This document shows positions 2,025 through 55,098 of a stretch of 64,000 nucleotides of DNA, piece by piece. The notes beneath the pieces are model-generated. The model worked only from the letters and a program-made list of their open reading frames with translations. It ran no database searches and was not told the origin of the DNA. How positions within the stretch are numbered: the stretch's first letter is position 1; every line of letters begins with the position of its first letter. Position numbers and translations under genes: made by a program. This DNA comes from an uncultured Candidatus Bathyarchaeia archaeon. GTDB taxonomy: Archaea > Thermoproteota > CALKCG01 > B24 > JAWCPE01. The stretch is from assembly GCA_964427455.1 (NCBI GenBank), contig CAYRUY010000002.1, positions 3,474 to 67,473 of the forward strand. Direction: 5' to 3'.

Positions 2025-2444
2025 CGGTCTTGGCGTGTAGCAGCAAGAGAAAGGCCTTGCTGTCCGCAGTCAGGGACCTAGCGTGGAACTGTGGCATACG
2101 AGGCGCGCCGCAGCGGTCCACATGGCCCGGTTCCTCTCTTTCCGCTAGCCTCCGTGTGCGGCGGTGAGTCCCGACGCGCGCCGGCTTGCGAAGTAGCCGC
2201 GGGGGCTTCAAGGTCTGATCCCTGCACTTGGCAGACGAGCTCACGCTACACATTTTCATCTAACAGTGGCTGATCGACCTAACAGGGTTCCTGACTGTTA
2301 GCGCGTCGGTGACTACCGGGTCCTTGTAGACCGACATTCACCTCCATGCGATGCCCTCCGCACCATACAGAGCATAGGTCTGCGCGTGAGCTAAGACTAA
2401 TATATGAGTTCTCCCGTCACATGAGTTCATCTCATAGGTGATGC

Positions 2445-2855
2445 ATGTTGCCATTTCCCCATGGGCTGCTGTCCCCCGAGCTCGGTCGGAAATACGTGAA
2501 GAGATTCATGGACATCGTCGTCTTGGCGATGTTGAAGCAGACGCCGATGCATGGATACGACCTGATAGCTGCCATTCATGATCGCTTCCACATCTTGGTC
2601 GGGCCGGGCGCACTATACCCAGTGCTTCACTCCTTGGAGAAAGAAGGCCTGATAACGGGGCGACTGAGCGGAAGCCGGAAAAGGACGGTCTACAACCTCA
2701 CGCAACACGGGAATACGGTCCTAGATAGACAGCTCAGGGACCTTGTAAAGGTGCAAGACCTCTATTCGCGTGTTCTTCAAAGCATGGCCATGGAAAGGCT
2801 CTCGTTCAGCCCACTCTCGGCCGAGGAGGATAGGCTGGGCATAGCTGGCAGCTGA
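2445..2855 (+). CDS. PadR-family transcriptional regulator
   Basis: MHGYDLI...GPGALYPVLHSLEKEGLI...RKRTVYNLTQHG winged-helix pattern; GGTGAT ribosome-binding motif upstream. Confidence 0.9.
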   Translation: MLPFPHGLLSPELGRKYVKRFMDIVVLAMLKQTPMHGYDLIAAIHDRFHILVGPGALYPVLHSLEKEGLITGRLSGSRKRTVYNLTQHGNTVLDRQLRDLVKVQDLYSRVLQSMAMERLSFSPLSAEEDRLGIAGS

Positions 2856-3034
2856 GACATTCACGAGTGCAAGAGAGACCGTGACATAGCGCTTTCTCCG
2901 TCATCAACTGCCGCATCCCGCCCGGCCTCACCCTTGCGAACAGACGGTCCGCTGTGCCAAGGGCTGCCTAAGTGTTGACGTTCCATAGGTTTTTATCCGC
3001 CCCAGGCCGCCGTATCGGGGAAAGGCTCAGCAAC

Positions 3035-5902
3035 ATGGCGAGAAGGCGCGGCGTGTTTGACCTCTTCTCGAAGCCTGTTCGAGCGATCGTTGACGAACGA
3101 GGTTTCCCAAGCCCCACGGGACCTCAAGTAGCTGCGATCCCGAAGATCCTGAACGGCATGAACGTCCTCCTGATAGCCCCGACGGGGACAGGTAAGACGG
3201 AGGCGGCGTTCCTGCCTATCTTGGACCTATACATCAAGGAGCCCGTCAAGCCTCTCGGAATTAAGATACTGTATATCACTCCTCTGCGAGCCTTGAATAG
3301 GGACCTGCTCGGCCGACTCGAATGGTGGTGTCAACGCCTCGACATCAAAGTCAGCGTAAGGCACGGGGACACAGACGTGAGGGAGCGGACCGCCCAGTCA
3401 CGCAGCCCGCCCGACCTGCTTATCACAACCCCGGAGACTCTCCAAGCTATAATCCCTGGCAGAGTCATGCGGAGGCATCTGAGAGCCGTCAAGTGGGTTA
3501 TCATCGACGAGTGTCATGAACTGGCTGAGGATAAGAGGGGCAGTCAGCTTTCTCTCGCGCTCGAGAGACTACGATGGATAACAGGTCGAGACTTCCAAGT
3601 CGTAGGGCTGTCAGCCACCATCGGAAGCCCTCAAGAGGTCGCGCAGTTCATCGTCGGAAACAATAGGACAGTCGATGTGGTCAGGGTTCCCGTCGCGCGC
3701 GGCATGGACCTGTCGATCGTATACCCTGAACCCATAGCAGCTGATTATGAGTTAGCGGAGAGGCTTTACACACATCCGGAGGTTGCAGCCAGGCTTAGAG
3801 TCATGAGAGAGGTGATCGAGAAACACCAGTCTGTGTTGCTGTTCACGAACACCCGGCCCGCAGCTGAGGTCTTGGCAAGCAGGCTCAGGATCTGGGATGC
3901 AGAGTTCCCAGTGAGCATACACCATGGCTCGCTGGCTAAACCCGCCAGGGTCTCGGCTGAAAGGGGACTCAAGACCGGAGAATTGAGAGGCCTGATCTGT
4001 ACGAGTTCCCTAGAGCTAGGTATAGATGTTGGCAGGATCGACCTCTGCATCCAGTACATGAGCCCGCGACAGGTAACCAGGCTCTTGCAGAGAGTTGGGA
4101 GGAGCGGCCATCAGATTGGGAGGATCGCGAAAGGCGTGATCGTCACGATGGATCCAGACGACACACTAGAGGCGATGGTGATTGCGCGCAGAGCCAAACG
4201 GGAGCGCCTAGAGCCAGTCACAATACCCGTTCGGCCGTATGATGCGTTGAACCACCAGCTCGTCGGGCTACTCGTCCAGAAGAGCCGCTGGTACTTCGAT
4301 GAGATCCTTGACGTCTATGGGAAAGCCTACCCCTACCGTGGCATGGACAAGGAGGACCTGACAAAGGTCCTGACATATATGTACACAAGGTACCCGAGGC
4401 TGGCTTGGGTCTCGTTCCAAGACGAGGTGATGCTCAGGCCAGCCAGGATCAAGCCCCTCTACGAGTACTACTTTGACAAGCTCTCAATGATCCCTGACGA
4501 GAAACAGTACCTTGTCATAGACGAGACGGATGATTCCCCGGTAGGCATCCTAGATGAGGCCTTCGTCGCCGAGTACGGTGAACCCGGGACGAAGTTCATC
4601 GTCCGCGGCAGCCCGTGGAAGATGCTGAGCATCGTTGGGGACAAGATATACGTGCGACCGATCACGGACCCGACAGGCGCCATCCCGAGCTGGGTAGGCG
4701 AAGAGATCCCGGTGCCTCTCGACGTTGCGATGGAGGTTGGCTCAATCCGAAGGTCCGTGGCCGCAGGCATCGCCAGAGGTGTAGAGCCTAAAGTCTTGGC
4801 TCAGAGGATCTGCAGCAAGTACCCTGTCGACGAAGATACGGCGCTAAGAGCCATAAAGGATGTCGTAGACCAAGCGGAGCAGAAGCTGCCCGTCCCCTCG
4901 GACCGGCTGATCACCGTTGAAGAATGGGAGGAGTACATCATCGTTCAGGTTAGCTTCGGCAGCCTAGTCAACCGGACGCTCGCTAGGCTTCTGGGCCATC
5001 TGCTCTCCGAGAGGACGGGCCACACGGTGGGCGTCCAGCAAGACGCCTACAGAATCATCCTTCAGGTCGCCGAGGTAGCCAAAGCGAAGGATGCGGCCGA
5101 CATCTTGGAGGAGCTTCCTAACCACGATGTTGCGAAGGTTGCCATCCAGGCAGCCGAGAAGACAGGGCTCTTCAAGAGAAGGATGGTCCATGTCGCCCGC
5201 CGGTTTGGAGCCCTCTCGAGAAGAGCCGACTTCAGCAAGGTCAGCCTAGACCGGCTTGAGAGGAGCTTCGAGGGGACGGTGATCCACGAAGAGGCGGTGA
5301 AGGAGACATCGGAGAAGGACATGGACATAGCGAACACCCTCAAGGTGCTGGAGGCCATGAGGAAGGGCAAGGTCCGAGTTGTGGTCCTCAGCGGCCGAGC
5401 TGGCGTCACACCTGTTGCACGAGTCGGGCTGGAGAGGATCAGTCGGAGATCCGACCTGATACCGGCGGAGAAGATGAGGCATGTGCTCATTCAGTCGGCG
5501 AAGGCCAGAATCCTGAGCGACTATCGAACGTTCCTCTGCGTGGAATGCTTCAAGCACGCCAAGACCATCAGGCTGAAGGACCTCCCCGAGAGGCCTACAT
5601 GCCCCGTTTGCGGAGGAAACGCGCTGGCCGTCCTGAACAGGACAGAGGAGCAGGTCTGGCGGCTCGTCGAGAAGCACGGGAGGAACCTTTCAAGACTCGA
5701 ATTGCGGACGGAGGAGGATGCAAAGGCCTCCTCTGAGCTCGTCAAGAAGTATGGCTCACCCGCAGCCTACGCTCTGGCCGGCAGAAGGCTAGGCGCTTCA
5801 GAGGCAGCGGAGATCCTCGGGAAGGGCTCTGAGGTAAACGATAGGTTCTTCGAGCATATCGTAGACGCAGAGAGGCGAGCGACGAGCAAGAGATTCTGGT
5901 AA
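3035..5902 (+). CDS. lhr: Lhr-like SF2 helicase with C-terminal Zn ribbon (paralog 1)
   Basis: APTGTGKT, DECH, SAT, TSSLELGIDVG, QRVGRSGH, SMIPD and C-terminal CxxC..CxxC. ORF is open from 2972; ATG 3035 taken as likely start. Confidence 0.9.
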   Translation: MARRRGVFDLFSKPVRAIVDERGFPSPTGPQVAAIPKILNGMNVLLIAPTGTGKTEAAFLPILDLYIKEPVKPLGIKILYITPLRALNRDLLGRLEWWCQRLDIKVSVRHGDTDVRERTAQSRSPPDLLITTPETLQAIIPGRVMRRHLRAVKWVIIDECHELAEDKRGSQLSLALERLRWITGRDFQVVGLSATIGSPQEVAQFIVGNNRTVDVVRVPVARGMDLSIVYPEPIAADYELAERLYTHPEVAARLRVMREVIEKHQSVLLFTNTRPAAEVLASRLRIWDAEFPVSIHHGSLAKPARVSAERGLKTGELRGLICTSSLELGIDVGRIDLCIQYMSPRQVTRLLQRVGRSGHQIGRIAKGVIVTMDPDDTLEAMVIARRAKRERLEPVTIPVRPYDALNHQLVGLLVQKSRWYFDEILDVYGKAYPYRGMDKEDLTKVLTYMYTRYPRLAWVSFQDEVMLRPARIKPLYEYYFDKLSMIPDEKQYLVIDETDDSPVGILDEAFVAEYGEPGTKFIVRGSPWKMLSIVGDKIYVRPITDPTGAIPSWVGEEIPVPLDVAMEVGSIRRSVAAGIARGVEPKVLAQRICSKYPVDEDTALRAIKDVVDQAEQKLPVPSDRLITVEEWEEYIIVQVSFGSLVNRTLARLLGHLLSERTGHTVGVQQDAYRIILQVAEVAKAKDAADILEELPNHDVAKVAIQAAEKTGLFKRRMVHVARRFGALSRRADFSKVSLDRLERSFEGTVIHEEAVKETSEKDMDIANTLKVLEAMRKGKVRVVVLSGRAGVTPVARVGLERISRRSDLIPAEKMRHVLIQSAKARILSDYRTFLCVECFKHAKTIRLKDLPERPTCPVCGGNALAVLNRTEEQVWRLVEKHGRNLSRLELRTEEDAKASSELVKKYGSPAAYALAGRRLGASEAAEILGKGSEVNDRFFEHIVDAERRATSKRFW

Positions 5903-7228: not shown

Positions 7229-8347
7229 ATGATGTCCAGTTGTATGCGCATGCAACCTCGCGTGCAACAGAGAACGAGCATACCCGACCTCCATGGAAGA
7301 GACGAGGGCGAGGATTCTGCTAGCTGCGCAGACTTCGCCTGGAATACCATAGTCATCCGACTCAGCGGAGAGATCGGGATCAAGAGCCGTCCCGTCAGAT
7401 CGAGGCTCGAGCGGACGGTCACGGTGCACATCAGGAGGGCGCTCGAGCGTCGAAAGATCCCTTTCGACGCGATCCTTCGCGGCCCGGGCAGAGTGTACGC
7501 TAAGCTACGGTATCGCAGCGCCGCAGGCCATGCTTTGGGAATGGTCTTCGGCATCTCATCCTTCTCGCCTGCGCTCGCGACCCCCTCAGACCTTGACGAC
7601 ATCACGTCTGCTTCCCTTCAGGCTGCACGGAGCGCGCTCACTAAAGGGTCTGCTTTCGCCGTCTCATGCAGGCGGACGGGGAAGCACAACTACTCGAGCG
7701 CTGATGTTCAGGCGAAGGTCGGCCAAGCGATACTGACGAGCTTCAACGAGATGGCCGTAAGGGTCGACCTCTCCAGACCCGAAGTGACGGTGGGCATAGA
7801 GGTCGTGAATGAGAGAGCGTACGTTTTTACCAAGACACTTCCAGGAGCAGGTGGGATGCCGTATGGCTCGCAGGGAAAGATGGTCGCCATCTTAGATGGC
7901 TCGGTGAGGTCCGTTGTGGCATCATGGCTCATCATGAGGAGGGGGTCGCCCATCGTGCCTTTGCTCGTCAGTTCGGCCCCCGATCGAACCCAGCCGCCCA
8001 GGGAGGTGCTTCGCCAACTCGTCACGCTGGCGGACTGGTCTCCGTTGCCCGGCGCTAAGTGCTATGCTCTGTGGAGAGAAGAACCGCTTGTAGCGTCCAA
8101 CGAGGGAAGACCTGCGAATGAGCGAGTATTGCCTTGGGCGTTCATCTACGCTGATGCTCTCTCGGAGTTCGAGGGCGCAGAGGGCATCGTGGTCGACGAA
8201 AGGTTTGGGCTCGGACTCTGCGGTTCAGGCGTTCAGGCTCAGCCCCTACGAGCGTATCGTTGCGCGCGCCCTGTCTACATGCCGCTGATCGGCTTCGGTG
8301 ACCAAGAGGTCGAGCGCCTGGCTGAGAAGATCGGCCTTGCAACATGA
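7229..8347 (+). CDS. THUMP-domain ThiI-like protein with degenerate PP-loop
   Basis: IVIRLSGEIGIKSR N-terminus, THUMP (FAVSCRRTGKH..S...VDLSRPEVTVGIEV), GAGGMPYGSQGK. PP-loop reads LDGSVRS instead of LSGGIDS. Start uncertain (ORF open from 7097). Confidence 0.8.
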   Translation: MMSSCMRMQPRVQQRTSIPDLHGRDEGEDSASCADFAWNTIVIRLSGEIGIKSRPVRSRLERTVTVHIRRALERRKIPFDAILRGPGRVYAKLRYRSAAGHALGMVFGISSFSPALATPSDLDDITSASLQAARSALTKGSAFAVSCRRTGKHNYSSADVQAKVGQAILTSFNEMAVRVDLSRPEVTVGIEVVNERAYVFTKTLPGAGGMPYGSQGKMVAILDGSVRSVVASWLIMRRGSPIVPLLVSSAPDRTQPPREVLRQLVTLADWSPLPGAKCYALWREEPLVASNEGRPANERVLPWAFIYADALSEFEGAEGIVVDERFGLGLCGSGVQAQPLRAYRCARPVYMPLIGFGDQEVERLAEKIGLAT

Positions 8348-9682: not shown

Positions 9683-10972
9683 ATGGACCCCCAAACACTG
9701 TACGACGTGTTCCCCGGGCTTGACTGCGGAGCCTGCGGTGCAGCGACATGCAACGCCTTCGCGAGAGGAATCTTAGCAGGAAAGTCGACGCCAGACGATT
9801 GCCCTACCCTCCGCAGCCCTGAGTACGCTGACCGGAGAGCTCGGCTCTCGGCCGAGCTGCTCGAGACGCTTCAAGCCACATGCGAGGGAAGAGCGACAGC
9901 CGAGTCGATGGGCGGAGTCACGTACATCCGTCCATGCGCGGAAGACATCGCCAAGGTGACGGCTGAGACACGCCTACAGCGCAGATTCACCGTTCCTCCC
10001 CCGCTTAGGTTTGAGGTATTCGACCCGTCGACCTGGGACTGGATGCTCCAGTCCATAGAACTCTTCGGGAACGCTAGGTGCTCCGAAAGTCTCGGGGTGG
10101 CCAGGATCGAGGCGTGCGGCATGACTGTCATGGTCCTCAGGGATGGGAGGGTGAATGTTCGCGCAGCCCCAGACGAGGAGCAAGCGATGGCGGTAATCCA
10201 CCTCGTAAGCCGAGCGCTATGGGGCTCTGTCATCTGTCACTGCGGGAACATCTCTATGGACTGCGCCGGTGGGGCGTGCACCGAGTGTCTTGACGCAGCT
10301 TGCCCAGCTTCAGACACAGAACCCTTCACGTTCACGAGCACAACCACTCGGTCTCAAGCCGACCAAGATATTCGCGGCGCTTCCTTGCCCAGTGGTCCCG
10401 CCGGCGACCCCCTCCGAGCCTTAGGCAACTCTGTGGACCAGGCAGCTCGTATGCTGGAAGACATGGCCGCGCGCCTGATCTGTGGCTTGGCGAATGGCTA
10501 TACGCGCGAAGATCTGGGTAAGATGCTCTCAGACGCGCGGAGAAAGGCCGTGCAAATGCTTGTCCGGGCACCTGAGGGTCGACATGCCCGAAGCGCTCTG
10601 ACGGCAATGGGCGCTCTTATGGACCTTCAGAGAGTGAGCGACGGCCTTGACCTCGCCACTCACACTGAGCAGACTATCACGGGAGCGTCAATGGCTTTGC
10701 TAACTGAAGCCTTCCAAGTCTTTGCTCTGTCCTTGAAAGGGCTCCGGTCTGGGCAGCCCGCTGATGTGACTGCTGCCCAAGAACGATTCGACGCGTTCCG
10801 AGACGCGTGGATGATCGAGTTCGGAAACCTGGGGAACACGCGGACGCTCTCAGCCTTCTATAAGATAGCGTCGAACGGGCTCTACCTGTCGAGGCTTCGC
10901 AGCTCTACCCGCGCAGAGGCTCTTGAGTGGCTGGGGCACCAGAGCGACCGGCTCTCATCCTCTCGGGAATGA
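9683..10972 (+). CDS. Uncharacterised Fe-S-binding protein
   Basis: N-terminal FPGLDCGACGAATCNAFA...CP (putative Fe-S domain), a second Cys cluster CHC..DC..GAC.EC...C, then a helical C-terminus. Confidence 0.65.
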   Translation: MDPQTLYDVFPGLDCGACGAATCNAFARGILAGKSTPDDCPTLRSPEYADRRARLSAELLETLQATCEGRATAESMGGVTYIRPCAEDIAKVTAETRLQRRFTVPPPLRFEVFDPSTWDWMLQSIELFGNARCSESLGVARIEACGMTVMVLRDGRVNVRAAPDEEQAMAVIHLVSRALWGSVICHCGNISMDCAGGACTECLDAACPASDTEPFTFTSTTTRSQADQDIRGASLPSGPAGDPLRALGNSVDQAARMLEDMAARLICGLANGYTREDLGKMLSDARRKAVQMLVRAPEGRHARSALTAMGALMDLQRVSDGLDLATHTEQTITGASMALLTEAFQVFALSLKGLRSGQPADVTAAQERFDAFRDAWMIEFGNLGNTRTLSAFYKIASNGLYLSRLRSSTRAEALEWLGHQSDRLSSSRE

Positions 10973-12502: not shown

Positions 12503-13075
12503 TTGAGCTTAACGCAGCCTATCAGATGCTTCCTCGCCGTCGACATTCCAGACGCGAACATAGTCGAGAGGCTCGTTGCTACTGGAAGAGACCTGTTGCA
12601 GACCGGCAACGATCTGAGGCCGGTTTCGCCTGAAAACCTGCATGTGACGCTCAGGTTTCTCGGCGACGCTAGCCCCGAGATGGTCAGGTCTGTCGAAGCT
12701 GCTCTGGACGAGCTTCACGTCGCCCCGTTCGCTGTCGAGCTCAGGGGCCTAGGCTTCTTCAGGGATCCGAAATACATCACGACTATCTGGGCAGGCATTA
12801 AGACCGGGGCTACTGAGCTAACAGGGATCTTCAACACGCTCGAGCCTAAGCTGGAGCGCGGAGGGTTCAGGCGCGACCCCCGTGGATTCTCGCCTCACCT
12901 CACTATCGCAAGGGTCAAGGCTGTCCGAGACCGAAGAGCTCTTCTGGAGTTTGTGGCGAAGAGGGCTGACTACGCCTTCGGGACCTTCACGGCTCAAAGC
13001 GTCAAACTGAAGCAAAGCGTCCTCACCCCGAAGGGGCCGATCTACACAACTCTCAGAGAGAGGAGCTTCGAGTGA
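12503..13075 (+). CDS. thpR: RNA 2',3'-cyclic phosphodiesterase (2H family)
   Basis: RCFLAVD N-terminus, two HxT motifs (ENLHVTLRFLG, FSPHLTIARVK), S.LTPKGPIY C-terminus. Confidence 0.92.
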   Translation: MSLTQPIRCFLAVDIPDANIVERLVATGRDLLQTGNDLRPVSPENLHVTLRFLGDASPEMVRSVEAALDELHVAPFAVELRGLGFFRDPKYITTIWAGIKTGATELTGIFNTLEPKLERGGFRRDPRGFSPHLTIARVKAVRDRRALLEFVAKRADYAFGTFTAQSVKLKQSVLTPKGPIYTTLRERSFE

Positions 13076-13102: not shown

Positions 13103-14626
13103 GTGCTCGGCGGCGCTAGAGACGAGGACGTGATGCCCTGCATGCCCCCAGGTCAGAGCGTCAGATCCCGCGAAGAGAAGCTGGCGCTCGAGGTCTGCAA
13201 CCAAGTGACGCTGAGGGTCACTCCTAGCTCTGATGAAAGAGAACGGGTCTATTCCCTCGTCAACAGACTAGTTAAGGCGGCGGAGGTCCGCTGCCGCAGT
13301 GTAACGTTGGACGCGAGGGCTGAGGTCTTCGGCTCTGTGGCCAAGGACACGTGGCTGAGCGGCGAAGCCGACATAGACCTGTTCCTGCTCGTGACGCCTG
13401 AGACTCCACGTGACGCAATGGTGGTAAAAGCCCTACAGGTCGGTAGGGCGGTGATAGAGGAGTTCCACGGACACTGGACCGAACGGTACGCCGAACACCC
13501 TTACGTTGAGGGCTGGGTCGAAGGTACCCGCGTGAACTTTGTTCCATGCTACGAGGTTAAGAACGGAGGGTGGCTGACCGCTGTAGACCGAACGCCTCTC
13601 CACACCCAATACGTCAAGGGAAAACTCAGCGACGAGGCAAAGAGAGAGGTCAGGCTCCTCAAGAGGTTCATGAAAGGTGTTGAGGTCTACGGGGCTGACA
13701 TCAAGGTCAGCGGCTTCAGCGGGTACCTCTGCGAACTACTCGTGATCCGCTACAGCCTACTTCTCGAAGCCCTCAAAGCGGCCGCCAGATGGAAGCCAGG
13801 AACGACTCTACTGATCGAGCCCATAGAAGGCATAGGCTTGGAGGAGGCCAAAACAGCCTTCCCCGAACCACTGATCGTCGTTGACCCGGTCGACGCGAGA
13901 AGGAACGTTGCGAGCGCGGTCTCGCTCCAGAGGATGAGCGAGTTCATCGCTGCGTCCAAGGCGTTCCTCAAGCGGCCAACGATTACCTTCTTCTACCCGC
14001 CGGCGCCGGAGGTTCCTGATACGCGGCAGCTGGTCGAAGACCTTTCGGCCAGAGGAACAGACCTGCTCGTCTTGGGCTTCGGTAGGGTCGACGCGGTTCC
14101 GGACGTGCTCTGGGGGCAGATGTACAGGACCATGAAGGCTCTCGTCACGCTCCTTGAAGAACACGATTTCAACGTCCTAAGGGCATCTGCGTGGAGCGAT
14201 GAGAAGAATTCGAACGCGTTCACCTTCGAGCTGGAGCAGGCACACCTGCCCGTGGCGAAGACCCAGACCGGCCCCCCAGTCACCGCGCGCGAGGTGCAGG
14301 ACTTTATGAGGAAACACCTCCACAGCTCAAGAACAATCTCGGGTCCATGGATAAGAGATGACAGGTGGGCTGTCGTAACAAGGCGCAAGGAGACCGACGC
14401 CACTTCACTACTGGAGAAGATCTCCCGAGAGGCGGCTGAGATAGGTGTGCGCGACAAGATTGCGGAGGCATTGAAGAGAGGCCACAGATTCTACGTCGGC
14501 ACGGAAGTGGCCGAGTTCAGCAAGGCCAACCCAGCCTACGCAGCGTTTCTCGCAAGCTTCCTCGCTGGAGCCCCTATCTGGCTTGAGCCTCAGAAGCCGC
14601 TGAAGCGGGATCGAGTGGCCAATTGA
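13103..14626 (+). CDS. cca: CCA-adding tRNA nucleotidyltransferase, archaeal class I
   Basis: GSVAKDTWLSGEADIDLF, YAEHPYV, VDRTPLHT, GFSGYLCELL, DPVD..RNVA. True start may be slightly downstream. Confidence 0.95.
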   Translation: MLGGARDEDVMPCMPPGQSVRSREEKLALEVCNQVTLRVTPSSDERERVYSLVNRLVKAAEVRCRSVTLDARAEVFGSVAKDTWLSGEADIDLFLLVTPETPRDAMVVKALQVGRAVIEEFHGHWTERYAEHPYVEGWVEGTRVNFVPCYEVKNGGWLTAVDRTPLHTQYVKGKLSDEAKREVRLLKRFMKGVEVYGADIKVSGFSGYLCELLVIRYSLLLEALKAAARWKPGTTLLIEPIEGIGLEEAKTAFPEPLIVVDPVDARRNVASAVSLQRMSEFIAASKAFLKRPTITFFYPPAPEVPDTRQLVEDLSARGTDLLVLGFGRVDAVPDVLWGQMYRTMKALVTLLEEHDFNVLRASAWSDEKNSNAFTFELEQAHLPVAKTQTGPPVTAREVQDFMRKHLHSSRTISGPWIRDDRWAVVTRRKETDATSLLEKISREAAEIGVRDKIAEALKRGHRFYVGTEVAEFSKANPAYAAFLASFLAGAPIWLEPQKPLKRDRVAN

Positions 14627-15411
14627 CCGAAGCCCTAAGTGTTGACCAGCTCCTCCGAGACAGGAGATACGGATTAGTACTCACGTATCCTAGGCTCAGC
14701 CCTCCCACTGCGCGACGCAGATTGAGCGAGTTGAGACGACTAGACGTGACCCATATAGAGTTCGGAGGTCGGAGTGAGGTCTACGGCGTCCGAGTCCTCG
14801 GCAAAGGCTGTGTCGGCCTCGTCGTCATCGCAAAGACTTCGTCGGGAAGGGCAGCGTTGAAGATCCGCAGACTTGACGCTGATAGGAGAAGCTTACGGCC
14901 TGAGGCGAAGATGCTAAAGGCGGCGAACCTAGCCGGGGTAGGTCCTCAGCTCTACTCGTATTCAAGCAACTTCATCCTGATGGAGCTCATTGAGGGGAGA
15001 TTGCTCCCCGACTGGGTCCGAGCCCTCGGCGGGAAGAATGCCAGAGCTAGGCTGCGAGAAACGCTGACTAGGCTCATCGAGGACTGCTTTCGGCTTGACG
15101 AGGCGGGCATAGACCATGGCCAGTTGAGCCGGGCCTCGAGGCACATCATCGTTCAGCCCTCCGGCAGCCCGCGGGTCATCGACTTTGAGTCGGCCAGCCT
15201 ACGGAGGCGCCGTTCAAACGTCACCTCGATATGTCAATACCTCTTCATCGGCAGCGAGACTGCAAGAGCCATCGTCAGGCTCTTGGGGGGCCTCGACAAG
15301 GAGCGGCTCATCACCGCTCTTAGGGCTTACAAAGCAGACGAGAGCCTTGAAGCCCTACACAGGGTAGAAGGGACAGCAAGCCTTTCCGCGCCAGGTACGA
15401 CGCTTAAATAG
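14623..15411 (+). CDS. Ser/Thr kinase-like protein (cca-linked archaeal type), atypical catalytic loop
   Basis: LGKGCVGLV Gly loop, ALKIRR, E, IDF. Catalytic loop reads HGQLSRASRH. Confidence 0.8.
   Translation: MTEALSVDQLLRDRRYGLVLTYPRLSPPTARRRLSELRRLDVTHIEFGGRSEVYGVRVLGKGCVGLVVIAKTSSGRAALKIRRLDADRRSLRPEAKMLKAANLAGVGPQLYSYSSNFILMELIEGRLLPDWVRALGGKNARARLRETLTRLIEDCFRLDEAGIDHGQLSRASRHIIVQPSGSPRVIDFESASLRRRRSNVTSICQYLFIGSETARAIVRLLGGLDKERLITALRAYKADESLEALHRVEGTASLSAPGTTLK
15404..15410 (+). promoter_or_regulatory. TATA box of the tRNA-Pro gene
   Basis: TTAAATA beginning 32 nt upstream of the mature tRNA 5' end. Confidence 0.6.
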
Positions 15412-15435
15412 AAGCCAAAGGCTAGGTGGCCGCGC

Positions 15436-15605
15436 GGGGCCGTCGTTCAGCTTGGTCTAGGTCCTACCGCCAAGAGGATCCCAGAGCAGGCAACGCGGGG
15501 AGCCTGGGGCGCAGGATCGCACAGACCGCTGGTGACCTAGGCATCCTAGGCCAGAGATCGTGGGTTCAAAATGACGGGCACGTCATGAAAGTCCCACCGG
15601 CCCCA
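15436..15605 (+). tRNA. tRNA-Pro(GGG) interrupted by five introns (20b/21, 30/31, 37/38, 45/46, 59/60)
   Basis: Acceptor GGGGCCG/CGGCCCC+A73. Removing 15459-15474, 15485-15502, 15510-15526, 15535-15556 and 15571-15591 leaves 76 nt with D stem GTTC/GGAT, anticodon arm CCAGC-CTGGGGC-GCTGG and T arm GTGGG-TTCAAAT-CCCAC. Confidence 0.9.
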
Positions 15606-15751
15606 TCACTTGAAACACAGAGCAGGCGATGAGATGGCCGAAGCCGTCTCCATTCCCGAGCCTGGCAATTCCTGAAGCTAATAGAGTCCAGCACCGCCTC
15701 GTCGCAAACATCTTATCTCGGCCGCTGCCACTGTATCCTCGGCGAAGAAGG

Positions 15752-29130: not shown

Positions 29131-32007
29131 GTGCTCTTCGAGAACAAGGGGGCCGTGAGGACGTTGAATGCCTTCCGTCTCCTTTCCAAGCCGCTCGTTG
29201 ACGCGCTGCGGCAGGAAGGCATAGATCGGCCTACGAGGATCCAGGAACAGGCCATACCTGTGATCCTCTCTGGGAAGAACGCGTTGCTGATAGCCCCAAC
29301 AGGGACAGGAAAGACCGAGGCGGCATGCCTCCCTGTTTTTGAGCTCTTCCTCAGGGAGAGAGCACAAGGACCGTCGAGGGGGATATCGATACTATATCTT
29401 ACGCCCCTGCGCGCCTTGAATCGAGATGTCTTCAGGAGACTCCTCGACATCGGCGAGAGGGTCGGCGTCAAGGTCCAAGTAAGGCACGGTGACACCGGGA
29501 CGACTGCAAGGAGGCTCCAGGCGCTAGAGCCCCCCTCCATGCTGATAACCACACCCGAGACACTGCAGGCAATACTTCCCGGAAAGCGGATGAGAGAACA
29601 CCTCCGTGAGGTGAAATGGGTTGTGGTTGACGAGATCCATGAGTTGGTCGCCGACAAGAGAGGCGCCCAACTGTCCCTAGCCTTAGAGCGACTGACTGAG
29701 CTTTCGCCGCGCCCCTTGCAGAGGATAGGCATCTCGGCCACGGTAGGTGAACCTCAACTGGTTGCCAGGTTCCTTACGGGTGGAAGAGACGTGGCGATCG
29801 TGAAAGCCGTATCGCCGAAGGAGGTCTCCGTCTGGGTCGAAAGCCCTACACCAACGATTGAGGATGAGAAAGAAGCTAAGAGGCTGCTGATCTCAGCCGG
29901 CGCGGTGGCGAGGATGAGGAGGATTCTCACCCTGATGGAGACAAGCAGTCCGATGCTGATCTTCACGAACACACGGGAACACGCGGAGGCTCTTGCCTCG
30001 AGGATGCTCTCCATGAGGCCGGATCTGAGGATTGGGGTCCACCACGGCTCATTGTCAAGGGAGACTAGGGTAAGGACTGAGAGAGACCTGAGGGAGGGGG
30101 CTCTCAAGGCTGTGATCTGTACCTCTTCTTTGGAGTTGGGCATCGACATAGGCAGCCTTGAGTTCGTAGCCCACTACATGTCCTCGAGGCAGGCCACTAG
30201 GCTTGTTCACCGGATTGGGAGAAGCGGTCATCACATCGATGGTAAGAGCTCTGGCTGCATCATCGCCAGTTCCCCTGACGACATTCTAGAGTCCGCAGTT
30301 CTCGCGAGGAGAATGATGGAGGGCAGGCTTGAAAGGCCTAGGATGCAACGTGGAGCGCTTGATGTCCTAGCCCATCAGCTCGCTGGGCTTTCGCTGGACC
30401 GGTGGAAACTCTCCCTCGGGGAGGCTCTCGCTTTGGTCCATCGCGCACTGCCCTTCCGCCACCTCGGGGTCGAGCAGCTAGCGGCTACGGTCAGACAGTT
30501 GTCAAAGACGGGCATGCTCTACCAGGCTGCGGACTCCATCAGCAGAAGGGGGAGGAGGCTTCACGAATACTACTTTCGCAACATCTCGATGATCCCTGAC
30601 GTGAAGCAGTTTGAGGTCTACGACTTCCTGGGGCGGAGGAGCGTCGGTACCCTAGACCAAGAATTCGTGGGAAGAAACGGGGTGGCCGGAACCGAGTTCA
30701 TCATGCACGGTCAGACATGGCGCATCCTCAGCGTCGACGAGGAAGAGCAACGCGTGGACGTGGAGCCAGTCCGTGAAAGCCTAGGGGCCATTCCCAGCTG
30801 GGAAGGTGAGATAATCCCTGTCCCGATGGACGTTGCCGAAGAGGTTGGGAGGCTTCGCGAACAGATCGCTGGTGAGGCCCAGAGAAACGGCGACCCAGCG
30901 CTACCCCTCAAGCCGTATCCTCTCACCGAGGAGGCGAGGTCGAAAGTCATCGACTACGTCAAGAGACAGATCGACGAAGGATTCGAGCTGCCTGGCAGGG
31001 ACACCTTCGTTGTTGAGGCGTTTGAAAGGTTTGTCGTACTGCATTCCTGCGCTGGGGATATGGCGAACGAAGCGCTTGGCAGAGCCCTAGCAGCGGTCTT
31101 AAGCAGCAGGTTCGGCGCAACCGTAGGCGTGCAGGTCGACGCGTACAGGATCGTCCTCATGGGCGGAGGCGTATTCGGGCCTGAAGATGTCGTCAAGGAG
31201 CTTGCCTCACTCAAGCCGAGGGACATAAGAACAGTGCTTGACGCAGCCTTGCCTGAAACCTCGCTCTTCGCCTGGAGGCTCTGGCAGGTAGCCAAGAGGT
31301 TCGGTATAGTTGAGAGAGAGGCCGACTACAGGCTGTCGCTCGCCCGGACCCTTGTGAGAACTCTGAAGGACTCGCCCGTCTTCGAGGAGACGGCAAGAGA
31401 GATCCTCTTTGAGAAGTTGGATGTGGGAGGAGCGGAGAGGATCGCGCGGAAGATAGCGAATGGCAAGGTGAGGATGCTTGCGTCCTATGGGTCAGAGCCT
31501 TACTCGCCTATGGCCTACCCGATTCTCGACAGGCTGACTCCGCATGACCTCCTCAGACCGGCTTTACCGACGCATGATGTGGCCACGATCGTCAAGGAGC
31601 GGCTGGAGAACGAGAGGGTCAAGCTCGTCTGCATCGCCAAGAACGACTGGGAGGCCATATACCCCGTAAGGCTTCTAACGGAGCCGGTTAGATGTCAGAA
31701 GTGCGGTTCGGCCCTCGTGGCCGTGACCTTCCGCCAAGACTTCGAGCTTCGGAAGATCCTCTCAAAGCGACAAAATCGAGCGAGACTCACCCCAGACGAA
31801 CAGAAGAAGTTCCTAACGGCGTGGAAATCAGCCAATGTCGTTCAGAGCTATGGGAAACGAGGTGTCCTCGTCCTCGCAGGTAGAGGAGTCGGGCCGACCA
31901 CTGCGATAAGAATACTGCGGGGATACTACAGGAATGAGGACGAACTCTACTACCGGGTCCTCAAGGCTGAACGCGACTACATCAGGACGAAGCCGTTCTG
32001 GGACTGA
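29131..32007 (+). CDS. lhr: Lhr-like SF2 helicase with C-terminal Zn ribbon (paralog 2)
   Basis: APTGTGKT, DEIH, SAT, TSSLELGIDIG, HRIGRSGH, SMIPD, C-terminal C...CQKC, RTKPFWD end. Start may be GTG 29155. Confidence 0.9.
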   Translation: MLFENKGAVRTLNAFRLLSKPLVDALRQEGIDRPTRIQEQAIPVILSGKNALLIAPTGTGKTEAACLPVFELFLRERAQGPSRGISILYLTPLRALNRDVFRRLLDIGERVGVKVQVRHGDTGTTARRLQALEPPSMLITTPETLQAILPGKRMREHLREVKWVVVDEIHELVADKRGAQLSLALERLTELSPRPLQRIGISATVGEPQLVARFLTGGRDVAIVKAVSPKEVSVWVESPTPTIEDEKEAKRLLISAGAVARMRRILTLMETSSPMLIFTNTREHAEALASRMLSMRPDLRIGVHHGSLSRETRVRTERDLREGALKAVICTSSLELGIDIGSLEFVAHYMSSRQATRLVHRIGRSGHHIDGKSSGCIIASSPDDILESAVLARRMMEGRLERPRMQRGALDVLAHQLAGLSLDRWKLSLGEALALVHRALPFRHLGVEQLAATVRQLSKTGMLYQAADSISRRGRRLHEYYFRNISMIPDVKQFEVYDFLGRRSVGTLDQEFVGRNGVAGTEFIMHGQTWRILSVDEEEQRVDVEPVRESLGAIPSWEGEIIPVPMDVAEEVGRLREQIAGEAQRNGDPALPLKPYPLTEEARSKVIDYVKRQIDEGFELPGRDTFVVEAFERFVVLHSCAGDMANEALGRALAAVLSSRFGATVGVQVDAYRIVLMGGGVFGPEDVVKELASLKPRDIRTVLDAALPETSLFAWRLWQVAKRFGIVEREADYRLSLARTLVRTLKDSPVFEETAREILFEKLDVGGAERIARKIANGKVRMLASYGSEPYSPMAYPILDRLTPHDLLRPALPTHDVATIVKERLENERVKLVCIAKNDWEAIYPVRLLTEPVRCQKCGSALVAVTFRQDFELRKILSKRQNRARLTPDEQKKFLTAWKSANVVQSYGKRGVLVLAGRGVGPTTAIRILRGYYRNEDELYYRVLKAERDYIRTKPFWD

Positions 32008-53532: not shown

Positions 53533-55098
53533 ATGAGCCTAAGGTTCATGCTCGAAGCGGTGTTGCACGCGAGCGGCGACCTAGAGGGCATAGCCGCTGA
53601 CATCGGAGAGTGGATCGGGGAGGCCAACGAGACCATACTTGTCAAGGGTGTGCCACGAGCGAAGCGAGACGAGGCCGCTAGGATCACAGGGTGGAATCTC
53701 CAGGGAAGCGCCCTGCGACTTTCCATCTCGTCGGGGAGGAGGGTCAGGGCCCATGACGGGCTCGTAAGGCTTCGTAACTTCCTAGCATCAAGGCTGGGCG
53801 AGAAGCACCGAATCGGGCTTCGAGCGCTGAGCGTCACGAGATACACGGTAGAGGCCCAGAGCCCCGGCGTCACAATCGAGGAGGCGCAGAGAGTCATTGG
53901 AGACTTGGCGAGGATCAGGGCGTTCGAGAACAGGCTGGTTATCGAGTTCAGCGACCTGACAGAGAAGGACCTTGAGAGCAGGCTTGTCGACCGAATCCTC
54001 CGCCAGATCGAGGCCAAGCCAGAACCCATGAAGGGGGCGAAGCTTGTGCCACTTGGGACGGTGCTCGCCCAGACGCCCCACAAGCCCATCAGCGAGACGA
54101 GAAATGCGACTGAGACCGCTGAGAGTCTGGGCTGGGTCAAGAGGTTTCCGGGGCGAGGTCAATGGATCTTCACCGCGCCAATGGCTGCGCTTGTGATGGG
54201 GATAAGCGACCTGATCATCGACAACGTGTTGAGGCCCATGGGCTTTGAGGAATGGATGCTCCCGAAGCTAACGCCGTTTGAGGTCATGGCCAGAATGCCA
54301 GGCTACTTCGACCACCTCGCGGAGGGAATGATATACGCGTGCACGCCGCCAAGGAACCCAGGGGCCCTAGGGGAGTTCAAGAGGGACTTTCAGCTACGCA
54401 GAACCATTGGCGTTGACGCTTTGAAGAGGGAGCTGAGCGACCCAAGCTACGTCTTGGAGCCTGCGCAATGCTCCCCATTCTACCAGCTATTCTCAGGGGA
54501 GACGGTCGCCTTGGACGAGCTGCCCGTGAAGGCGTACGATGCAAGCGGCTGGACCTGGAGATGGGAAGGACAGGCTACAACTGGCCTTGAGAGAACGATT
54601 GAGTTCTACCGGGTCGAGTCGGTCTGGCTTGCTGAGCCAGAGGAGGCCTTGGAGATCAGGGACAAGGAGGCTGAGGCATCGTTGAAGTTCGCCGACAAGG
54701 CCTTGGACCTCGAGGCGAGATTGGTGGTCGGCGCGCCGTTCTATATGACCTCGGACGAGGCTGCCAAGACGCTGGTGGACATCTCGGACCCAGCCAACTA
54801 TCCCACGGTCGATATCGAGGCTTGGCTCCCATACCGAGGCGCAAGAGAGAGCTCGGAGTGGCTTGAGATAGGAGGCGCGTTTACATGCGCGAAGGACAAG
54901 TACGTCAAGAGCTTCGCAGTAAGGGAGGCGAAGAACAGACCCATATGGACAGGGTGCGGAGGCTTTGGGATCACACGCTGGGCTACCGCGTTGCTGGCCC
55001 AACACGGCTTTGAGTTTAACGAGTGGCCTAGGGAACTCAGGCAGAGATTGGAGACGCCTCGCAAGCCCCTCAGACTCGTCACCTGGCCCAGAGCCTGA
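53533..55098 (+). CDS. serS: Seryl-tRNA synthetase, type 2 (methanogen-type)
   Basis: SGRRVRAHDG N-domain, GWVKRFPGRGQW, AQCSPFY, WRWEG, EFYRVE, WTGCGGFG.TRW (Cys/Glu/Cys Zn ligands). Confidence 0.9.
   Translation: MSLRFMLEAVLHASGDLEGIAADIGEWIGEANETILVKGVPRAKRDEAARITGWNLQGSALRLSISSGRRVRAHDGLVRLRNFLASRLGEKHRIGLRALSVTRYTVEAQSPGVTIEEAQRVIGDLARIRAFENRLVIEFSDLTEKDLESRLVDRILRQIEAKPEPMKGAKLVPLGTVLAQTPHKPISETRNATETAESLGWVKRFPGRGQWIFTAPMAALVMGISDLIIDNVLRPMGFEEWMLPKLTPFEVMARMPGYFDHLAEGMIYACTPPRNPGALGEFKRDFQLRRTIGVDALKRELSDPSYVLEPAQCSPFYQLFSGETVALDELPVKAYDASGWTWRWEGQATTGLERTIEFYRVESVWLAEPEEALEIRDKEAEASLKFADKALDLEARLVVGAPFYMTSDEAAKTLVDISDPANYPTVDIEAWLPYRGARESSEWLEIGGAFTCAKDKYVKSFAVREAKNRPIWTGCGGFGITRWATALLAQHGFEFNEWPRELRQRLETPRKPLRLVTWPRA

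Follow-up and report, generated by a model that had tools for sequence, protein, structure and literature searches.

The stretch of DNA analysed here (64,000 nucleotides (nt) of contig CAYRUY010000002.1 from an uncultured Candidatus Bathyarchaeia archaeon; hereafter the 'window') contains, at positions 15436–15605 of the forward strand, a 170-nt gene for tRNA-Pro(GGG) in which six exons are separated by five introns. We are confident, if short of certain, that this is a functional Bathyarchaeia gene, with a 170-nt primary transcript carrying five short introns of the bulge-helix-bulge (BHB) kind. The exons are 23, 10, 7, 8, 14 and 14 nt long and add up to 76 nt, whilst the introns measure 16, 18, 17, 22 and 21 nt; the coordinates and sequences that an earlier note on this DNA had given for all of these pieces were matched exactly when we re-read the segment (Table 1).

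When the six exons are joined, the resulting 76-mer (GGGGCCGTCGTTCAGCTTGGTCTAGGATCCCAGCCTGGGGCGCTGGTGATCGTGGGTTCAAATCCCACCGGCCCCA) is called by ARAGORN as tRNA-Pro(GGG) with a standard cloverleaf, in agreement with the parse offered by the earlier note. We see an acceptor stem of 7 base pairs (bp), a D stem of 4 bp, and anticodon and T stems of 5 bp each, with anticodon and T loops of 7 nt; the core nucleotides U8, A14, G18-G19, G15/C48, U54-U55-C56 and A58 are present, as is UUCAAAU, together with the Pro-type features G35, G36, G37 and A73. Such positions, from U8 and A14 through to G35–G37 and A73, make up the generally known core and identity set of tRNA-Pro. The CCA end is not encoded. 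Over its whole length the joined sequence is identical at 70 of 76 positions to uninterrupted tRNA-Pro(GGG) genes of other archaea (L094, L092, L089, L039 and L021), all junctions being matched. Upstream, a (T)TTAAATA(G/A) element is found 22–27 nt 5' of the gene in all orthologues (described below), and the TATA-like copy in the window, at 15405–15412, is the putative promoter.

The splice motifs were assessed with a single rule, applied mechanically to all five introns: four exon bases ending 2 nt before the 5' splice site pair with four intron bases ending 2 nt before the 3' splice site, leaving two 3-nt bulges. For introns 1 to 5 this yields 4, 4, 3 (plus a G.A mismatch), 4 and 4 central pairs, 19 out of 20, with inner helices of 3, 2, 2, 6 and 5 bp; every detail of the BHBs that had previously been drawn by hand for these five introns was recovered in this way. 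The register is exacting, in that sliding both splice sites by 1–5 nt either way reduces the central pairs from 19/20 to 5–10/20, and none of 20,000 intron shuffles reached the observed 37 central and inner pairs (mean 11.7, maximum 24). The geometry is likewise found, in exact register, in every orthologue.

The motifs do differ in how closely they approach the strict hBHBh' form, defined by a minimum of two Watson–Crick pairs in both flanking helices (PMC7714728). That of the 59/60 intron is strict, with an outer helix (h) and an inner helix (h') of 5 bp each, whereas that of the canonical 37/38 intron becomes so only once introns 2 and 4 have gone, and has the G.A mismatch in its central helix; in the four-intron relatives L059 and L128 the same helix is a perfect CUGG/CCAG. 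The 20b/21 motif is borderline, its outer helix consisting of U.G and C-G, and the remaining two, at 30/31 (no outer pairs) and 45/46 (one G.U), belong to the relaxed HBh' class.

Scans of genome and metagenome collections, made with exon 1 as a query and with a gapped T-arm/acceptor pattern, recovered orthologues with five, four and three introns. The five-intron form is present in the window, in metagenome contig Ga0315307_1000034 (L131) and in the Bathyarchaeia metagenome-assembled genome (MAG) JZ-2_201808_bins_182 (L123), and has hence been assembled independently at least three times; both L131 and L123 are colinear with the window over ~9 kb, at ~75% nucleotide identity, with the tRNA-Pro gene at the syntenic position. 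Four introns are found in two further Bathyarchaeia MAGs (L059 and L125) and a metagenome contig (L128), the 45/46 intron being the one that is missing, and three in a single Bathyarchaeia lineage (L126/L127/L130), in which the 45/46 and 59/60 introns are both missing; all of the named relatives with this gene are Bathyarchaeia MAGs. Wherever an intron is missing, the flanking exons are contiguous exactly at the predicted junction, as for exons 4 and 5 in L059, L125, L128 and L126.

Across this set the mature sequence differs from that of the window by 0–2 nt (exons 74–76/76), at the same time as introns are 68–86% identical and the flanking DNA ~75%. Amongst the five-intron relatives the exons are identical at 76/76 positions in L131 and 75/76 in L123, beside neighbouring proteins that are 71–86% identical (71–74% for the CCA-adding enzyme); in the three-intron lineage they are still 75/76 identical, though the neighbouring CCA enzyme is only 49% identical. 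The intron helices, meanwhile, change in a compensatory manner, and introns 1, 2, 3 and 5 all have double-sided changes in their inner helix: inner pair 2 of 20b/21 goes from G-C to A-U in L123; inner pair 3, where formed, is G-C, C-G or A-U at 30/31, and G-C, U-A or A-U at 37/38; and inner pairs 3 and 5 of 59/60 show double changes from A-U to G-C (L131) and from G-C to A-U (L128). As whole-gene alignment with MAFFT misplaced the 37/38 intron between five- and four-/three-intron genes, and shifted L125 by one column, pairs were tabulated from geometry, free of any alignment; a formal count, confined to the portions that align well (acceptor stem, T stem, introns 1 and 5), gave 98.5% of cells paired versus 37–56% with slid partners, with three pairs changed on both sides. 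Taken together, the near-perfect identity of the exons beside diverged flanks, the compensatory changes in the introns and the retention of the promoter element argue that both exons and splice motifs are under purifying selection.

The gene in the window forms one end of a 3/4/5-intron series amongst close relatives, and the series is, as we read these sequences, a record of recent and precise intron gain or loss, one at a time. There are some hints of polarity: by intron sequences and upstream synteny the five-intron clade and the three-intron lineage go together, suggesting a precise loss of the 59/60 intron in the latter and a gain of the 45/46 intron in the former; adenylosuccinate lyase identities, at 68–71%, do not discriminate the tree of the 3/4/5-intron lineages. 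Within the 1.5 Mb of loci searched, the sequences of introns 4 and 5 occur only in orthologues, with no copies in other tRNA genes, and intron 4 has no second copy in either the window or the same 1.5 Mb; a fuzzy search for copies of the shorter introns matched too freely to tell us anything.

Several features of the recovered loci merit description in their own right. One candidate, L129, was not counted as an orthologue, since a 23-nt exact match to exon 1 (9840–9862) is followed there by unrelated sequence, in an unrelated GC-rich, bacterial-looking metagenome contig; the match could be due to chance, or be the remnant of a tRNA fragment or attachment site. Directly after the tRNA 3' end in L123 lies a ~1.3-kb insertion (2130–3460), visibly more AT-rich and absent from both the window and L131, which contains only short open reading frames (ORFs; 90 and 122 amino acids (aa), minus strand) and may be the remnant of an element that integrated beside the tRNA gene. 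In L128, a 102-nt tRNA gene with apparently one intron (7257–7358; Rfam tRNA, 57 bits) is located ~5.3 kb upstream of the four-intron tRNA-Pro.

As the earlier note had anticipated, the unspliced gene escapes the standard callers. ARAGORN returned no tRNA from the unspliced 64-kb window; Rfam gave nothing at its gathering score in the window, and around the locus only noise at E<=10, with no partial tRNA match, whilst its tRNA model at the gathering score also misses the three-, four- and five-intron orthologues. What is found in the ORF list instead is a 68-aa ORF at 15426–15632, previously flagged as spurious and indeed accounted for by the tRNA gene. Our own scan of the window for T-arm/acceptor patterns, which is blind to genes with an intron inside positions 54–58, gave eight candidates, seven of which are inside coding regions and not tRNA-like; the tRNA-Pro locus is the sole tRNA-like one. 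Public annotations of the three-, four- and five-intron MAGs probably lack tRNA-Pro(GGG) also. The consequence is an annotation gap: as neither ARAGORN nor the Rfam tRNA model detects the gene, tRNA-Pro(GGG) will seem to be absent from genomes of this lineage, which may be scored as incomplete, with the spurious 68-aa ORF called in place of the tRNA. A related effect is seen for the three-intron gene of L126 (480–609; also L127 and L130), which ARAGORN miscalls, giving a tRNA-Pro whose body is aberrant and which has just one intron, of 34 nt.

That callers do not recognise the locus would also be the behaviour of a decaying pseudogene or remnant, with the real tRNA-Pro(GGG) encoded elsewhere. 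Against such decay, the exons are preserved at 76/76 and 75/76 in relatives whose flanks have drifted to ~75% (DNA) and 71–86% (protein), and at 75/76 even beside a CCA enzyme of 49% identity; with compensatory substitution in the intron helices and a kept promoter element besides, we consider a pseudogene highly improbable. Over-fitting is a more general concern, as five free gaps could force most GC-rich 170-mers into a tRNA, and here two exons are of only 7 and 8 nt, with many degrees of freedom in hand parsing. The likelihood that chance has produced this gene is, to our minds, negligible: introns 4 and 5 are absent from relatives in which the junctions are contiguous, uninterrupted genes match across all of the junctions, the register and shuffle controls exclude random BHBs, and the scan for T-arm/acceptor patterns leaves this locus as the single tRNA-like candidate in the window.

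A narrower alternative, the only one that still merits consideration, allows the gene only four introns, with the 22-nt 45/46 element retained in the mature molecule as a class-II-like long variable arm (a CCUAGG-CAU-CCUAGG hairpin). The element does sit in the variable region, where it forms a stable hairpin of 5–6 bp; it is the youngest or most restricted of the insertions, and its helices are invariant amongst the three genes that carry it, hence without covariation support of their own. A variable arm, though, has no need of the pairing that follows the hairpin, where CCAG-AG makes four of four pairs with exon bases C40–G43, in BHB register and with two 3-nt bulges, pairing that is lost when the register is shifted; as an arm it would leave six unpaired bases (CCAGAG) at its 3' foot, and the four- and three-intron orthologues possess an ordinary 5-nt variable loop with exons that are otherwise identical. 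Long variable arms are, to our knowledge, a property of Leu, Ser and Sec tRNAs only (joined in bacteria by Tyr); the isotype here is Pro, and the six bases at the foot pair as a BHB, so that the element lacks the characteristics of class II. A four-intron gene with a long arm is therefore improbable.

Returning to the functional five-intron gene that we favour, a number of our observations weigh against it, the invariance of the 45/46 helices being one. Another is that domains of the tRNA-intron endonuclease (EndA) and of RtcB were found by Pfam scans in 0 of 56 ORFs in the window. The others come from folding. Of the expected structure, the minimum free energy (MFE) fold of the precursor contains just the acceptor stem, the T stem and the hairpin of intron 5, and none of the BHBs, and for this reason we computed the energies of constrained folds in the nearest-neighbour model; a fold with all five BHBs comes to -53.6 kcal/mol versus -80.7 for the MFE, i.e. 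27 kcal/mol higher, and formation of the 37/38 BHB costs 6.5–17 kcal/mol, depending on the gene, the temperature and which other introns remain.

How might such a precursor be processed? We envisage that transcription would begin just downstream of the TATA box (15405–15412), that archaeal EndA would cut both 3-nt bulges of each BHB, behind the second nucleotide of the bulge, and an RtcB-type ligase join the exons, with the exons then refolding and the CCA end being added afterwards. The earlier note had remarked that the BHBs occupy exon bases later needed in the D and anticodon stems, and we find the bases concerned to be G22, G23 and U25 (future D stem) and C27, C28 and C40–G43 (future anticodon stem). 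As three of the BHBs are built from these bases, the cloverleaf can form only after intron removal, and the precursor would pass through a non-cloverleaf 'string of hairpins' fold. The note's accompanying proposal, that splicing is ordered, survives in part: an order is plausible but not forced, because the nucleotides of the five BHB cores are all distinct, so that the cores could form simultaneously. Only the 37/38 motif depends on removal of its neighbours, and then only to complete its outer helix, which counts 3 pairs before any splicing (intron 2 lending two of them) and 5 once the neighbours are out.

The costs of forming each motif rank as 59/60 < 45/46 < 30/31 ~ 20b/21 < 37/38, a ranking that holds whether computed at 37 or at 75 °C, and for each of the three five-intron genes. 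On this basis the model predicts that splicing would start with the 59/60 and 45/46 introns, which are variably present and have the strongest hairpins, and end with the canonical 37/38 intron. With respect to the nuclease itself, relaxed BHB motifs are described in the literature as needing an (alpha-beta)2 or epsilon2 EndA; the 30/31 and 45/46 introns, being relaxed HBh' motifs without an exon-side outer helix, imply just such a broad-specificity enzyme, as would be expected from the TACK affiliation of the host.

By adenylosuccinate lyase the closest genomes are all Candidatus Bathyarchaeia (JZ-2_201808_bins_182 at 86%, the next at 67–71%), with Thermoproteota and Korarchaeia more distant, placing the lineage within the Bathyarchaeia and not the Thermoproteales. 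A thermal habitat is likely, since one metagenome match shares its Ga0080004 prefix with the record of a Methanodesulfokora from the Washburn hot spring. The genes directly upstream of the tRNA, identified with Pfam and NCBIfam, encode an RNA 2',3'-cyclic phosphodiesterase, the CCA-adding enzyme and a small kinase-like protein (Table 1); the five-intron clade keeps the order thpR-cca-kinase-like-tRNAPro, as does the three-intron lineage (L127/L130), where the proteins are only ~48–50% identical. As the products of EndA carry 2',3'-cyclic phosphates, and this tRNA-Pro has no encoded CCA, the thpR-cca neighbourhood is suggestive of a possible functional link.

Table 1. Exons and introns of the tRNA-Pro(GGG) gene, with upstream features (positions are those of the window)
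Feature	Position	Strand	Remarks
Exon 1: tRNA positions 1–20b (acceptor 5' strand, D-stem 5' strand, most of D loop)	15436–15458	+	same in 6/7 orthologues; 1 nt different in L123
Intron 1, position 20b/21, 16 nt	15459–15474	+	central UGGU/GCCA, inner 3 bp (GGU/ACC), outer 2 bp; in 7/7 orthologues
Exon 2: positions 21–30 (D-stem 3' strand, position 26, anticodon-stem 5' strand)	15475–15484	+	
Intron 2, position 30/31, 18 nt	15485–15502	+	relaxed HBh': central UCCC/GGGG, inner 2 bp, no outer; in 7/7 orthologues
Exon 3: positions 31–37 (anticodon G34 G35 G36, and G37)	15503–15509	+	CCTGGGG unchanged in every orthologue
Intron 3, canonical position 37/38, 17 nt	15510–15526	+	central CUG/CAG (3 bp) and G.A mismatch; inner 2 bp; outer helix is the anticodon stem
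Exon 4: positions 38–45 (anticodon-stem 3' strand, start of variable loop)	15527–15534	+	
Intron 4, position 45/46, 22 nt	15535–15556	+	central CUGG/CCAG, inner hairpin 6 bp, single outer G.U (HBh'); five-intron clade only
Exon 5: positions 46–59 (variable loop, T-stem 5' strand, T loop to A59)	15557–15570	+	
Intron 5, position 59/60, 21 nt	15571–15591	+	strict hBHBh': central UUCA/UGAA, inner 5 bp; outer helix is the 5-bp T stem
Exon 6: positions 60–73 (end of T loop, T-stem 3' strand, acceptor 3' strand, discriminator A73)	15592–15605	+	
TATA-box-like TTAAATAG, putative promoter element	15405–15412	+	23 nt before mature tRNA 5' end
RNA 2',3'-cyclic phosphodiesterase ThpR/LigT	12503–13075	+	upstream of tRNA-Pro
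Archaeal CCA-adding enzyme	13103–14626	+	upstream of tRNA-Pro
Small 262-aa protein, weakly similar to Bud32/RIO kinases	14623–15411	+	directly 5' of tRNA-Pro

Other features of the window may be noted here. The stop codon of the kinase-like ORF (end 15411) falls within the TATA-like element. On the minus strand, and within the same ORF, 15300–15318 contains UGAUGA and gives a weak match (E about 4), clipped by the search boundary, to the 5' ends of the C/D-box small RNA models sR7 and sR28; this is probably due to chance. Further away, the gene at 53533–55098 encodes a class II aminoacyl-tRNA synthetase core with an N-terminal PF18490 tRNA-binding domain, an architecture which we take to be that of the rare methanogen-type seryl-tRNA synthetase, and two large helicases of the Lhr type, paralogues of one another (DEAD, Helicase_C, WH_Lhr, DEAD_assoc), are encoded at 2972–5902 and 29131–32007.

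With regard to what has been described elsewhere, archaeal tRNA genes have at most three introns according to reviews and to the tRNAscan-SE 2.0 paper. Multi-intron genes are known from the Thermoproteales (Pyrobaculum, Thermofilum, Caldivirga, Vulcanisaeta; Sugahara 2007/2008, Fujishima 2010, as relayed in PMC4033280 and PMC8450103), and, as far as those accounts go, they resemble the present gene in several ways: short BHB or relaxed introns occupy the 37/38 site and also non-canonical sites (D loop, anticodon stem, variable loop, T loop), a motif can need the prior removal of a neighbouring intron, and callers often miss the genes. The same accounts set the Thermoproteales maximum at three, in contrast to the five seen here, in Bathyarchaeia, and of the 'intron transposition' pattern (the same intron recurring in other tRNA genes) we see no sign in the 1.5 Mb searched.

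In the Asgard Atabeyarchaeia and Freyarchaeia, most tRNA genes are interrupted, often several times and at non-canonical sites (Valentin-Alvarado et al. 2024, PMC11291895, Supplementary Data 4), and tRNAscan-SE under-counts their introns (PMC11291895). The maximum tabulated is four, for Arg-TCT, Ile2-CAT and Leu-GAG in Freyarchaeia and for Trp-CCA in Atabeyarchaeia-2; these belong to another phylum, and the Asgard tRNA-Pro(GGG) genes carry one to three introns as against five here (PMC11291895). In a red alga, Cyanidioschyzon merolae, tRNAs have up to three BHB-type introns, whose sites are the D stem/loop, 37/38 and the T loop (Soma et al. 2013, PMC3728597), and experiment shows their order of removal to follow BHB stability, with 37/38 last in tRNA-Ile, just as our energetics predict for the Bathyarchaeia gene; this system differs in being a eukaryotic nuclear genome with a eukaryotic endonuclease, in its maximum of three introns and in having been experimentally validated (PMC3728597). 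Split and tri-split tRNAs (Nanoarchaeum equitans, Caldivirga maquilingensis) similarly assemble a tRNA body from short pieces via BHBs cut by EndA; theirs are encoded at separate loci and joined in trans, whilst the six pieces described here are colinear within one 170-nt gene.

The earlier note's view that five introns exceed what is usually described is thus borne out, with three in the reviews, four in the 2024 Asgard supplement and none found with five; neither a five-intron tRNA gene nor tRNA introns in Bathyarchaeia appeared in the full-text literature that we searched, a scope that mostly leaves out subscription papers, so that an earlier report is possible. The BHB-intron mechanism is known; what is new is the intron count, the lineage and the 3/4/5 series. 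We lean, though only slightly, towards the view that this tRNA gene is more interrupted than any other so far described, whatever the organism (five BHB introns, six exons of 7–23 nt), and that it is the first sign of thermophilic Bathyarchaeia, outside the Thermoproteales and Asgard archaea, amassing tRNA introns.

Comparable genes may exist in other lineages. Spliced alignment by dynamic programming on the tRNA-Pro of L120, L121, L122, L124 and others gave 1–4 putative introns, the BHBs being poor in L120 and L121. These two loci (L120, 3299–3487, 189 nt; L121, 648–785, 138 nt), from Thermoproteota archaeon Flange_M5_B4, each contain a tRNA-Pro with the common T arm, a 59/60 intron and several further insertions (3–4 by spliced alignment), for not all of which clean BHBs could be resolved; the 189-nt gene may be another case of four or more introns, in a different lineage.

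The findings are of relevance to specialists in tRNA and archaeal RNA processing, and imply no categorically new mechanism. Five introns raise the known limit, and extend the piling-up of introns to the Bathyarchaeia; near-identical exons with three, four or five introns, of which 45/46 and 59/60 are precisely present or absent, provide a clean system for the study of BHB intron gain and loss. The maturation route makes a testable prediction, namely that there would be no cloverleaf before splicing and that the 37/38 intron would be removed last. If our reading is true, the 3/4/5 series catches single, precise events of intron gain or loss, and the precursor would be a natural substrate with which to study how EndA, ligase and RNA refolding are coordinated.

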